Under the pieces are notes generated by a model, which did not search any database, was not told the DNA's origin, and saw nothing but the letters and a program-made list of their open reading frames with translations. This document shows positions 26,816 to 48,037 of a stretch of DNA of 64,000 nucleotides, piece by piece (the stretch's first letter is position 1; every line of letters starts with the position of its first letter). The DNA comes from a virus (taxonomy: Duplodnaviria; Heunggongvirae; Uroviricota; Caudoviricetes). A program made the position numbers and the translations under genes. The stretch spans positions 3,216 through 67,215 of IMG/VR virus record IMGVR_UViG_3300049049_000146; one strand, given 5' to 3'.

Positions 26816-27235
26816 TCAGTACATCAGGGAGCCGGTGCCCCAATCCTCCGCGATCACGTCCCACGGCTTGGACCCCTCGTCCTCCTCGGGCTCCATCTCA
26901 CCGACGTGCTTGAAGCGCTCGGGGTGATCCTTCATCATCTGCTCGATTCGCGACGCCCAGACGTAGGAGACCGGGTCGTCGTTGAACGCCGAGAGGACGA
27001 GATCGTTTAGCGCGTCGCGCTTGCTCTCGTCGTCCGCCACCTCTTCGATCTCGACGTAATCGTTCGCGATGAAGTGTAGTTCGTAGCTCGGCGTCAACTC
27101 GCAACAGTGGACGTGACGGTTGCGGTCGAAGGCGTACACCCCGTACATTTCCTTCGTCTGCGCCTGGATATCCTCACGCCAGTGGCGACGCTCGTCGATC
27201 TTGACCAGGTACCAATCAGGCTTCACGGTCGTCAT
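26816..27235 (-). CDS. hypothetical protein
   Basis: SD AGGAG. Confidence 0.75.
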   Translation of the reverse strand: MTTVKPDWYLVKIDERRHWREDIQAQTKEMYGVYAFDRNRHVHCCELTPSYELHFIANDYVEIEEVADDESKRDALNDLVLSAFNDDPVSYVWASRIEQMMKDHPERFKHVGEMEPEEDEGSKPWDVIAEDWGTGSLMY

Positions 27236-28507: not shown

Positions 28508-28896
28508 CACATGCCTCCGCTGGTGACGAGATCCCCGAACACGGCGCGGCGAATGTCGCTCTCGTCGAGCTTGACGTAATCCTCCCACGCCGGCTCGACC
28601 CATTCACCGTCCTCGTCCTCGAATCCCTTGGGCTCGTCGGTCTGGACGAACTCAGCCTGGACGTCGAACCAGGTCGTCTGAATGTTCTCGCTCGCCCACT
28701 CCCTCAGCTGGTCGATGGCCTTGACGTAGCCCGGCCAGTCCTCGACACCCTCAGCCTCGCAGTAGTATTCGGCCCCCATCGGTCCGTAATTGACGTCGAA
28801 GAGAGCGCACTGACGTAGCTTCTTCGTCTTCTCGTCCATCAGATCGATGTAGTGCTGACGAATCGCTGCCCGAGCCTTGTCGTACATCCTGCTCAT
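28507..28896 (-). CDS. hypothetical protein
   Basis: SD AAGGA. Confidence 0.75.
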   Translation of the reverse strand: MSRMYDKARAAIRQHYIDLMDEKTKKLRQCALFDVNYGPMGAEYYCEAEGVEDWPGYVKAIDQLREWASENIQTTWFDVQAEFVQTDEPKGFEDEDGEWVEPAWEDYVKLDESDIRRAVFGDLVTSGGM

Positions 28897-28907
28897 GGGA
28901 TTTCCTT

Positions 28908-29177
28908 TCAGCCCCTTGCCGGGACCAGATTGAGGGCCGTGTTCAGAGCACTGAACATTCCATCCATCGTGGGGATCGTGTACTCGTGGGGCTCGGCGGG
29001 GACCCCGTTGCGCCGCTCCAACTCCTCCCGAGTGAGAAGCTGTCTGATCTTTGCCTCCCAGAGCGTCGCCACTCCCGGAGGCGAAGCCTCCATCGGCGGC
29101 TCGACCTCGACGAGCCATTCGCGGCCGTCGGGTCCCGTGATTTCCACCGAGATCCTGTGGTAAACGATCATTCCCAT
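28908..29177 (-). CDS. hypothetical protein
   Basis: SD GGAGG. Confidence 0.7.
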   Translation of the reverse strand: MGMIVYHRISVEITGPDGREWLVEVEPPMEASPPGVATLWEAKIRQLLTREELERRNGVPAEPHEYTIPTMDGMFSALNTALNLVPARG

Positions 29178-29194
29178 CGCGACCTCCGGGCCAG

Positions 29195-29546
29195 AAATGG
29201 AAAACCCCCATCAAGCTTTTGGCTATCAGGGGGCGTAGGGTGCCGGCCTAGGGCGTGTATCACCGGCGTGAGGGCATCTACCTGGATGTTCATTCCGAAG
29301 CTTGAAGGGTTCGCAATACCATGGCGCATGCTTGTGCCAGCATTATTCCTTCAATTCGGTTTTACCGCACCCGTCCCCTTTTGTCTGGTTCCTCGTCTCC
29401 GACACGAGAGCCGCCTTCCACCAGCAAGTCACGGCGGTATACACTGGAGATTGCCGGGCGGACAACTCCAGTTGTGAAGTAGGGCGCCGACCCTACTTCA
29501 CAACCCGACGAGGCTTTTTCATCGGCTTACTGCTGCCTCGTCGATC
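29195..29546 (-). ncRNA. candidate ~350-nt structured non-coding RNA, family unknown
   Basis: longest gene-free gap among minus-strand genes; begins at predicted +1 G of promoter copy 19; at least 7 helices incl. a perfect 14-bp stem; ends in hairpin plus U-tract. Confidence 0.6.
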
Positions 29547-29552
29547 GAACTC

Positions 29553-29569
29553 TAGCATCGTTGGACTTT
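29553..29569 (-). promoter_or_regulatory. phage promoter-like motif copy 19 (drives candidate ncRNA)
   Basis: AAAGTCC-AAC-GATGCTA. Confidence 0.85.
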
Positions 29570-29571
29570 GG

Positions 29572-29913
29572 TCAGATAGGGATCTCCCACTCCTCGGGAA
29601 TCTGAGGGAGCGGGCCAAGGTATACGTGGTCGTCCTTCAGATTCTCGACGGTGCTCCCCTTCCCCATCTTGTAGACGCCACCATCCCGATCGACGATCAC
29701 GAGAACCGTCTGCGGAACGAAGCCGAAGAAAGGGTAGACCTCAAGGTACGAGCCCGTCTCTCGTACGTCGCCTGCTCGGCACCACGCGAGAACTCGCTGG
29801 TATCTCGCCGATGAAGGCTCAGCAATCGTGATGTCGAACATGGAACCCGTGCGGATGAATTGCACGACGTCCCGGATTCGACTCCTGACCACACGCAGCT
29901 TGTTCCGAATCAT
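29572..29913 (-). CDS. hypothetical protein
   Basis: ATGA overlap. Confidence 0.65.
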   Translation of the reverse strand: MIRNKLRVVRSRIRDVVQFIRTGSMFDITIAEPSSARYQRVLAWCRAGDVRETGSYLEVYPFFGFVPQTVLVIVDRDGGVYKMGKGSTVENLKDDHVYLGPLPQIPEEWEIPI

Positions 29914-30137
29914 GCGGTACCCTTGCTCGGCATCTGAATGATTCCGAGGAACTGGAAGGCGAGCTTGAGATCGCGCTGCTCAGAGCGTCGCACCGCCTCA
30001 GCATGAAGCCAGAGTGATTGAAGTCGCTTGCTGACGAGACGATCATCGAGGCGAAGCATCCACGAGCGCAGGTCTTCCACGCCATTGATGTCCGCCTCGA
30101 TGAGGATCTCTTGGTCAACGGTGTCGACGATATTCAT
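29910..30137 (-). CDS. hypothetical protein
   Basis: abuts upstream stop. Confidence 0.65.
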   Translation of the reverse strand: MNIVDTVDQEILIEADINGVEDLRSWMLRLDDRLVSKRLQSLWLHAEAVRRSEQRDLKLAFQFLGIIQMPSKGTA

Positions 30138-30356
30138 TCAGTCCACCTTCTTCGTTGCGGCCTCGTAGAACGAGACGCGCTGCTTGCTGCCCTTCGGGCC
30201 TACTCGCTTTGACGTGTTGGTGTGTCCCGCAATCCAGACCCATGCCTTGCGGATACAGGGGCCGCAGATGATCATGGTTTCAGAATACTGACAGCCAGTA
30301 GCGGGATGCGCGACACCCTTGCACGACGCACAGATGTAGCGCTTGAACTCTTCCAC
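30138..30356 (-). CDS. small zinc-finger protein
   Basis: CASC..CGPC; SD GGAGG. Confidence 0.7.
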   Translation of the reverse strand: MEEFKRYICASCKGVAHPATGCQYSETMIICGPCIRKAWVWIAGHTNTSKRVGPKGSKQRVSFYEAATKKVD

Positions 30357-30383
30357 ATTCCCCTCCTTTCAGGGGATGGTATA

Positions 30384-30680
30384 TCACGCGTGGTGGAAAT
30401 CGCGCAACAGAATCCCGGGCTCGATCCCCGGTGCAGCGTCGCCGATGATTTCCACGACCACTTCCTGGGACGTCAGCCAGTAGCAGTTGTCGTGCGTCAG
30501 CCTCTCGTTCGTTTCCCAAACGAACTTCTGGTCGAACTCAGCATCGCATTCGATGCCGCAGCTAAACGTGGCGGCACGCTTGGCGGCATCCGGGTCAGCC
30601 GCGGCGACGATCAGGCCACGCGTCTGATCGTACGTGCTGCGCTTCGGACCGATGTTCCTGGAGAGCTTGTAGAGTTTCAA
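30384..30680 (-). CDS. hypothetical protein
   Basis: TTGA overlap. Confidence 0.7.
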   Translation of the reverse strand: MKLYKLSRNIGPKRSTYDQTRGLIVAAADPDAAKRAATFSCGIECDAEFDQKFVWETNERLTHDNCYWLTSQEVVVEIIGDAAPGIEPGILLRDFHHA

Positions 30681-32812: not shown

Positions 32813-32912
32813 GCTGAGGGCTGCACTCCATCCCATTTCAGGCTCGTAGCCTCGGTCTTTTGCTTTCCCAGGGACCGGCCAGACCTCTCACCATTTGAGT
32901 GCAGCCCTCAGC
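32813..32912 (-). ncRNA. candidate 100-nt structured leader or sRNA (multibranch)
   Basis: perfect 16-bp inverted repeat 32813-32828/32897-32912 enclosing two small hairpins; stem starts at predicted +1. Confidence 0.6.
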
Positions 32913-32918
32913 CTCGCT

Positions 32919-32935
32919 TAGTATCGACGGGCTTT
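32919..32935 (-). promoter_or_regulatory. phage promoter-like motif copy 20
   Basis: AAAGCCC-GTC-GATACTA. Confidence 0.85.
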
Positions 32936-46917: not shown

Positions 46918-46953
46918 AAACGAAAAAGGGCGGAGCCCCGAAAGGCTCCGCCC
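46918..46953 (-). terminator. terminator-like hairpin
   Basis: GGGCGGAGCC-TTTCGG-GGCTCCGCCC, tail TTTTTCGTTT. Confidence 0.85.
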
Positions 46954-47887: not shown

Positions 47888-47962
47888 TGACCCCACGGGG
47901 ATTTGAACCCCGGTTCTCGGCGTGAAAAGCCGGCGTCCTGGACCGGGCTAGACGATGGGGCC
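47888..47962 (-). tRNA. trnE: tRNA-Glu (anticodon TTC), CCA not encoded
   Basis: acceptor GGCCCCA/TGGGGTC+A; anticodon arm CCGGC-TTTTCAC-GCCGA; T-arm CGGGG-TTCAAAT-CCCCG. Confidence 0.93.
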
Positions 47963-48020: not shown

Positions 48021-48037
48021 TAGTATCGTCGGACTTT
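48021..48037 (-). promoter_or_regulatory. phage promoter-like motif copy 23 (drives tRNA)
   Basis: AAAGTCC-GAC-GATACTA. Confidence 0.85.

Follow-up and report, generated by a model that had tools for sequence, protein, structure and literature searches.

The window considered here, a stretch of 64,000 nucleotides (nt) in whose numbering all coordinates are given unless stated otherwise, spans bases 3216–67215 of the virus record IMGVR_UViG_3300049049_000146, a phage genome of 423,825 base pairs (bp) with direct terminal repeats and a G+C content of 57%. On its minus strand, a gene-free gap of 394 nt separates the stop codon of a gene for a protein of 113 amino acids (aa) (29572) from the ATG of a gene for an 89-aa protein (29177), and this gap holds a single-copy element of ~345–355 nt (hereafter the RNA). 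The original prediction for the locus had proposed an undescribed, highly structured phage RNA furnished with its own promoter and terminator. Our preferred reading, to which we assign a probability of roughly 45%, is that the gap is the gene for a clade-specific structured noncoding RNA (ncRNA) that would be released as a discrete molecule and act in trans, its expression being predicted from the sequence. The features of the locus, in the direction of transcription, are as follows.

29572–29913, minus strand: P0001, the upstream gene (113 aa), whose stop codon lies 2 nt ahead of the promoter motif
29553–29569, minus strand: copy of the promoter-like motif AAAGTCC-NN-CGAT-NN-TA, with an inferred start ~7 nt downstream, near 29546
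29506–29543, minus strand: H1, the 5'-proximal hairpin, 9 bp (29535–29543 with 29506–29514) and a 20-nt loop
29470–29505, minus strand: H2, a perfect 14-bp helix (29491–29504 with 29471–29484) with a loop of 4–6 nt
29446–29469, minus strand: H3, an interrupted 9-bp stem adjoining H2, with a variable loop
29391–29437, minus strand: H4 (29411–29437) and H5 (29391–29409), two hairpins that open the nearly invariant block
29191–29388, minus strand: 3' core, a multibranched domain of ~200 nt (predicted fold)
29348–29354 with 29302–29308, minus strand: H6, within the long hairpin of the 3' core
29290–29343, minus strand: open reading frame (ORF) of 17 codons, not conserved as a reading frame
29204–29234 and 29195–29204, minus strand: terminal hairpin with a symmetric UGAU/UGAU internal loop, and its U-tract UUUUCCAUUU
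29183–29187, minus strand: Shine–Dalgarno sequence GGAGG of P0002
29175–29177, minus strand: ATG start codon of P0002
28908–29177, minus strand: P0002 (89 aa), the first gene after the RNA, as an ORF with its translation

The 5' part of the RNA is a run of hairpins in which H1, H2, and H3 directly adjoin one another, H2 reaching 16 bp when its wobble closing pairs are counted, followed by H4 and H5, which are predicted both by the fold of the single sequence and by that of the alignment. The 3' core would be closed by a long-range helix (CCAGA..AAAGGGGA with the U-tract and UCUGG), inside which the predicted fold places an inner helix (GGGUGC/GCACCC), the long hairpin holding H6, a small branch, and the terminal hairpin. 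Every helix that had been named from the window alone (H1–H7 and the last hairpin) is recovered at its stated position by both the single-sequence and the alignment folds; the symmetric UGAU/UGAU loop followed by the U-tract UUUUCCAUUU and the 17-codon ORF at 29290–29343 are likewise present as described.

The evidence for this element is comparative. Homologous loci that carry the RNA were obtained solely through protein look-ups with the two genes flanking the gap, and they define three closely related lineages: that of the window, one represented by 14 JGI contigs (the longest 848 kb; L005–L009), and one represented by a Logan contig (L010). Gene order in the latter two is as in the window and their gap measures 393 nt. 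Over the ~17 flanking genes, the lineages are 70–74% identical at codon position 3 and 90–94% identical at codon position 2, compared with 90.5% in the 5' part of the RNA (H1–H5) and 96.5% and 95.5% in the 3' core (29191–29388). The 3' ~250 nt of the RNA are thus nearly invariant, stems included; the 3' core has accumulated 7–9 substitutions in 198 nt where third-position divergence predicts ~50–60, and the genes that adjoin the RNA on both sides are far more diverged. Measured in this way, nucleotide-level selection on the RNA is shown to be stronger than that on the second codon positions of the neighboring genes. Across a three-way alignment of ~6 kb, only one other 100-nt window (27122–27221) is equally conserved in all three pairs. 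Identity peaks of 92–100% among the three lineages also occur within coding sequence, at 27122–27221 and 30223–30522, and indicate that the locus is mosaic in its divergence.

The same alignment shows the gap to be non-protein-coding. The lineages differ by two 1-nt indels (columns 106 and 233 of alignment A2), and the ATG that would start a 53-codon ORF has become AAG; as a result, every ORF in the gap, on both strands, is broken in one lineage or another. The 17-codon ORF, which had been noted from the sequence, is frameshifted in L010 by a 1-nt insertion and is not conserved. None of the six frames has an excess of synonymous changes (2–6 synonymous against 9–13 nonsynonymous).

Pairing, by contrast with reading frame, is kept in the 5' hairpins. 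In H1, two pairs are altered on both sides among the three lineages (A-U to G-C and C-G to U-A) and a third is altered to G.U, although the 20-nt loop that the stem carries is nearly invariant. In H2, three pairs are altered on both sides, and in two more a change on one side has left a wobble pair, so that pairing persists; wobble also occurs at two of the doubly altered positions, where the plus strand would have A.C mismatches. Pairing is therefore retained at all cells of H1 and H2, with five double compensatory changes in total, a count that was reached in 7 of 500 shuffles; over the whole RNA, 98.5% of cells are paired, compared with 37–52% when the partners are slid by 1–3 columns. Eight changes create or resolve G.U pairs that are valid solely on the minus strand, and two run in the opposite direction. 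Covariation, which the original prediction had expected among homologs, is accordingly seen in H1 and H2, and these comparisons show that both are kept as helices of the minus-strand RNA, with statistics that are modest given three closely related sequences. Elsewhere the sequences vary too little to be informative: the stem of H3 is invariant while its loop differs among the lineages (GCCCG, AUUCA, and ACUCG), the 3' core has just three substitutions in predicted pairs, all kept by wobble (C-G to U.G, U.G to C-G, and U.G to U-A), and the 12 helices other than H1 and H2 are invariant or altered on one side only. No compensatory variation occurs in H3–H7, in the closing helix, or in the terminator hairpin, and covariation is consequently silent on them.

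The element does not belong to a described class of RNA. At the gathering score, Rfam 15 has a single match in the whole window, a transfer RNA (tRNA) elsewhere, and none on the RNA. When 29000–29800 was searched with permissive filters at E values up to 10, the best match reached 16.9 bits where the gathering score is 80, and every one of the subthreshold matches is noise from eukaryotic microRNAs or long noncoding RNAs; the families covered include transfer-messenger RNA (tmRNA), RNase P, 6S, the signal recognition particle RNA, riboswitches, T-box, group I and II introns, GOLLD, ROOL, HEARO, OLE, and ribozymes. The expectation that Rfam would yield no match was thus borne out, as was the absence of a tRNA or tmRNA signature: ARAGORN calls nothing in 28900–29900 and no tmRNA in the whole genome. 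Anti-Shine–Dalgarno, boxA, box C/D, and T-loop motifs are absent from the RNA, and literature searches found no description of it. Relative to Rfam 15, these searches show the element to be a new family.

Several specific candidates were also tried and rejected. A leader-peptide attenuator finds no conserved coding frame in any lineage comparison, the 17-codon ORF being the one frameshifted in L010. A retron msr-msd, an omega RNA of IscB or TnpB, an IS110 bridge RNA, a DRT ncRNA, and a tracrRNA each lack a gene for the partner enzyme within ~3 kb. As for an antisense regulator of phage genes, the longest complementary stretch between the RNA and any other part of the 424-kb genome measures 13 nt, a length expected by chance in a search of this size, and an antisense role inside the phage is hence unlikely.

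The 5' boundary of the RNA is suggested by a promoter-like motif that recurs throughout the genome. AAAGTCC-NN-CGAT-NN-TA occurs in 55 copies, all on the minus strand, as a contiguous consensus of ~20 nt (gggcAAAGTCCGnCGATAcTAa) with no separate −35 block. The first bases of the copies in the window lie at 2340, 3491, 4227, 5775, 7853, 10150, 11032, 14119, 15901, 18583, 22850, 25828, 29569, 32935, 38548, 45470, 48037, 52302, and 54959. A copy just upstream of the RNA had been claimed, and the one at 29553–29569 is indeed kept in both L005 and L010. The distance from motif to start codon is usually 9–50 nt (9–166 nt among the window copies), compared with 375 nt here, by far the longest. A short hairpin and a Shine–Dalgarno sequence usually come after the motif, which precedes small unknown genes and tRNA genes; the copy at 32935 has a leader of 129 nt ahead of its first gene (32813–32935, minus strand). 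Because the copy at 48037 precedes the tRNA gene at 47888–47962, the motif appears to serve noncoding genes as well.

At the 3' boundary, the base of the last hairpin (GCCCCC/GGGGGU) leads straight into UUUUCCAUUU (UUUUCCUUUU in the relatives), giving the G+C-rich stem ending at a U run by which an intrinsic terminator is recognized in sequence, and the pattern of the U-tract (UUUUCCWUUU) is that of the canonical terminators of this genome (a stem plus TTTTTCGTTT). We therefore regard 29195–29234 as likely to be an intrinsic terminator of moderate strength. A simple scan of 28800–30000 for sigma-70 promoters and terminators made no calls, having missed this hairpin because of its 4 × 4 internal loop, whereas a second scan of our own ranked it with the terminator-like sites of the genome. 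The proposal that the RNA has its own terminator stands as regards the hairpin and the matching U-tract, but with a hairpin that is weaker than the canonical ones. Many textbook intrinsic terminators lie on the minus strand of the genome. The phage encodes one sigma-70-like gene (genome 309985–310179, a 423-aa frame) and no detectable RNA polymerase, so that intrinsic terminators should work.

The RNA is narrowly distributed. A profile search with the 89-aa protein retrieved more distant relatives, namely, L011, a short contig in which another gene ends 10 nt upstream of the 89-aa homolog and there is no RNA, and a 392-kb virus record rated complete (G001; L012/L024). In the latter, what lies ahead of the 89-aa homolog is a terminator, a variant promoter motif (CCGATATTAA), and ~25 nt of leader, with no gap for the RNA, and the RNA was found nowhere in the record by BLAST or by a covariance model of the 3' core. 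The corresponding stretch of L012 (2920–3000) contains, ahead of the 89-aa homolog, a terminator hairpin together with TTTCGTCGTTT and a promoter motif that has diverged (GGACCCTGCCGATATTAA), an arrangement that points to a terminator–promoter cassette common to the phage group, with the 5' half of the motif differing. No second copy of the RNA was found in its own genome (nhmmer and covariance model), BLAST against the phage collection gave no match, and a search of viral contigs for related loci with the two flanking proteins found none. Exact-pattern scans of viral, metagenome, and genome contigs returned nothing, or chance matches that the nhmmer profile rejected, bearing in mind that distant homologs may escape exact patterns. 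The absence of the RNA from L011 and G001 indicates that it is not tied to the 89-aa gene; judged from these loci, it appears to be an insert that is restricted to one clade and that separates a promoter from the first gene of its operon.

We hypothesize that a host-type RNA polymerase starts near 29546 and that a fraction of the transcripts would end at the moderate terminator at 29195–29234, releasing a discrete RNA, with the remaining transcripts continuing into the 89-aa gene and the rest of its operon. The U-tail at the 3' end is predicted to pair back onto an A/G-rich stretch 170 nt upstream, which would give the closed end typical of stable RNAs. The released RNA would then act in trans through its nearly invariant 3' part of ~250 nt, most probably as a partner RNA, scaffold, or decoy for a host or phage protein that touches much of its length, and the fast-evolving H1–H3 would be mainly a structural or protective module presenting the conserved 20-nt loop. 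We favor a trans-acting RNA because the element is independent of the downstream gene, because the same class of promoter serves tRNA genes, and because the 3' tail is predicted to pair with the 5' edge of the core in the manner of stable RNAs. That the 3' stems are invariant while H1 and H2 covary freely further suggests sequence-specific contacts along the RNA, such as would be made with a protein partner. The original prediction of an undescribed phage ncRNA is upheld insofar as the locus holds a structured, noncoding, conserved minus-strand element without an Rfam match; the 17-codon ORF that it noted is not conserved as a reading frame. A bolder version, which we put forward as doubtful, is that the ~250-nt part forms the RNA component of a new ribonucleoprotein that this 424-kb phage would make early in infection, possibly a decoy or scaffold that captures a host machine such as RNA polymerase, the ribosome, an RNase, or a defense protein that senses RNA; proteins would then dock at the tandem G.A internal loop and at the conserved 20-nt loop of H1.

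Several observations weigh against a discrete trans-acting RNA. The folding energy of the element is ordinary for the genome: the RNA is more stable than shuffled versions of itself (z = −3.15), but this also holds for the opposite strand (z = −4.5), and among 352-nt windows of the same 64 kb its energy of −136.1 compares with a mean of −136.6 and a G+C-adjusted rank of 146 of 637. "Highly structured", as the element had been called, is hence demonstrated by the compensatory changes in H1 and H2 and not by energy. Covariation support is limited to those two helices, and the fold of the 3' core is a prediction, as are, from sequence, the promoter and terminator ends of the RNA. The last hairpin, with its interrupted stem, has a folding energy of −14.8 kcal/mol, compared with −22 to −32 kcal/mol for the canonical terminators. 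No copy of the promoter motif occurs from the terminator of the RNA down to 25828, from which it follows that the RNA is at least also a 5' leader. The carriers are three close lineages, and mosaic recombination could inflate their apparent conservation. Finally, the neighboring proteins include no recognizable RNA-binding family or fold.

The strongest alternative is a cis-acting leader of the attenuator or riboswitch kind, in which the 3' core senses a ligand, a protein, or a physical signal, a choice between terminator and antiterminator sets expression of the 89-aa gene and its operon of ~3.3 kb, and the released RNA is a by-product. We consider this possible, though less likely than a trans-acting RNA. 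The order of promoter, structured RNA, hairpin with U-tract, Shine–Dalgarno sequence, and ATG fits it equally well, and since relatives without the RNA have a plain promoter and a short leader, the RNA could be an added layer of control. There is also a candidate switch: GGGG at 29375–29378 has two possible partners, the U-tract and the CCCC in the 5' arm of the terminator. The latter pairing would extend GGGUGC/GCACCC, and the GGGG:CCCC state lies 3.3 kcal/mol above the terminator state. This pairing is invariant, which leaves covariation silent on it, and near-degenerate alternative pairings of this kind frequently arise by chance. The layout at the 3' end is no more distinctive. The hairpin and U-tract of the RNA end 8 nt before the Shine–Dalgarno sequence of the 89-aa gene, but strong terminators elsewhere in the genome often lie 10–25 nt ahead of a Shine–Dalgarno sequence and ATG, leaving no room for a promoter (in the window at 46927, 54022, and 66082; outside it, in window-based numbering, at 95000, 111346, 126864, 148498, 157315, and 177356). 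The frequency of this layout suggests widespread read-through or a phage antitermination system, and its presence after the RNA is, on its own, no sign of a dedicated switch. Moreover, the ~190 nt of extra 5' hairpins would be superfluous for a switch, no riboswitch, T-box, or leader family matches even at E values up to 10, there is no conserved leader peptide, and the invariance of the stems is unusual, given that aptamers normally covary.

The near-invariance of the 250-nt block, stems included, could alternatively reflect conservation as double-stranded DNA, for instance as an origin of replication, a platform for protein binding, or a promoter belonging to another temporal class, and the equal folding of both strands in silico is consistent with this. 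We nevertheless judge a DNA-level element improbable: pairing in H1 and H2 is kept through G.U pairs valid solely in the minus-strand RNA, neither base composition nor skew stands out and no AT-rich region for unwinding is present, the alignment has no iterated repeats as judged by eye, and the element sits inside a codirectional transcription unit right after the promoter motif. Very improbable, in our view, is a nonfunctional remnant, that is, a decayed gene or spacer persisting as a long 5' leader, with conservation due to recent recombination among the three lineages. The closeness of the carriers, the mosaic character of the locus (27122–27221 is 96–100% identical), and a folding energy that is average for the genome all agree with it, but a remnant would have to combine the observed deficit of substitutions in the 3' core with adjacent genes that are much more diverged, 5' changes that are overwhelmingly pair preserving, and 1-nt indels that are tolerated with no helix broken. 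That the gap encodes small proteins is scarcely credible: ORFs of 17 (with AAGGA a few bases upstream), 40, and 53 codons are present in the window and a 9-codon mini-ORF that starts in the H1 loop and stops at a TAG in H2 is intact in each of the three lineages, but the lineages are set apart by indels that shift the frame and by the loss of a start codon, no frame has a synonymous excess, and three of the four codon differences in the 9-codon ORF alter the residue.

The genes around the RNA offer few functional clues. Homologs of the upstream 113-aa protein were found in the three RNA-bearing lineages only, at 67–73% identity; it has no Pfam or PHROG match, and its structure model is poor (predicted local distance difference test [pLDDT] score of 38) and unusable. 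The downstream 89-aa protein has a confidently predicted fold of four strands and two helices (pLDDT 90) with no PDB match by Foldseek at E ≤ 0.001, and its homologs in several large-phage contigs all keep the N-terminus MGMIVYHK..EITGPDGREW. Searches of Pfam and PHROGs with the five genes nearest the RNA gave nothing above cut-off, and among the genes within ~3 kb on either side, which encode 31–232 aa, the sole precomputed Pfam match is DUF6011. Two genes downstream of the RNA, a 129-aa protein (28510–28896, minus strand) has a subthreshold resemblance to the T7 Gp5.9 family of RecBCD inhibitors (PF25708, 17.5 bits against a cut-off of 24.5; phrog_4790, E = 0.018). ARAGORN finds 38 tRNA genes in the whole genome, all on the minus strand between genome positions 51102 and 370603, of which only the one at 47888–47962 lies in the window; the call at genome 182574–182653 has a four-base anticodon (aaca) with no amino acid assigned and could be a frameshift-suppressor-like tRNA or an artifact.

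Structured phage RNAs with some likeness to this one are known. GOLLD and ROOL are orphan structured ncRNAs carried by phages and prophages. A catalog of candidate structured RNAs from viral metagenomes holds 10,006 candidates (Fremin, Bhatt and Kyrpides 2023, PMC10690425). Like GOLLD, ROOL, and these candidates, the RNA described here is a conserved multihelix phage ncRNA found by comparative sequence analysis; GOLLD and ROOL, however, are ~600–800 nt long as opposed to ~350 nt, neither matches the RNA in sequence or structure, and the RNA is known from only three close lineages. Stable RNAs C and D of phage T4 ("species 1 and 2") are small RNAs of the tRNA region and resemble the present RNA in being small RNAs of a large, tRNA-rich phage made from tRNA-type transcription units. 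The T4 RNAs are processed from the precursor of the tRNA cluster in which they are encoded, whereas the RNA here is longer, lies ~150 kb from the main tRNA cluster (genome 179–210 kb), and has its own copy of the promoter motif and a terminator-like end.

The leader transcript of phage lambda from pR' to tR', the "lambda 6S RNA" of ~194 nt, is likewise a short noncoding transcript running from a promoter to an intrinsic terminator, directly ahead of a block of genes whose expression depends on read-through alone. No sequence requirement is known in the lambda leader beyond the signals for Q utilization and termination; in the present RNA, by contrast, ~250 nt are nearly invariant, and no Q-like antiterminator was identified in this work. 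Riboswitch and attenuator leaders, HK022 put, and EAR occupy the same place between a promoter and the first gene and resemble the RNA in having a structured core followed by a terminator hairpin, which in the RNA is a likely one and has a candidate competing pairing, but the RNA has no Rfam cis-regulatory match, no boxA-like sequence, and no conserved leader peptide, and it is much larger than HK022 put or EAR. A precedent for a scaffold is the packaging RNA (pRNA) of phage phi29, which at 174 nt is part of a protein machine and does not work by pairing with mRNAs. It too is a promoter-driven structured phage RNA, yet the RNA here has no sequence or structural resemblance to it, no intermolecular loop–loop complementarity that we could identify, and no connection with the packaging genes.

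Very large phages are known for their tRNAs and translation genes, and few of their ncRNAs have been described. The candidate presented here is well delimited: it lies behind a promoter motif, finishes in a terminator-like end, and combines a 5' module that varies with a core that is invariant. The complete relative G001, which has the same downstream gene without the RNA, provides a natural comparison. If the ribonucleoprotein reading were true, the RNA would represent a new functional class of phage RNA, beyond a new family. A phage with almost no noncoding DNA keeps a 350-nt RNA that is constrained more tightly than most of its early proteins, and a constraint of this strength suggests that the RNA probably matters during host takeover.

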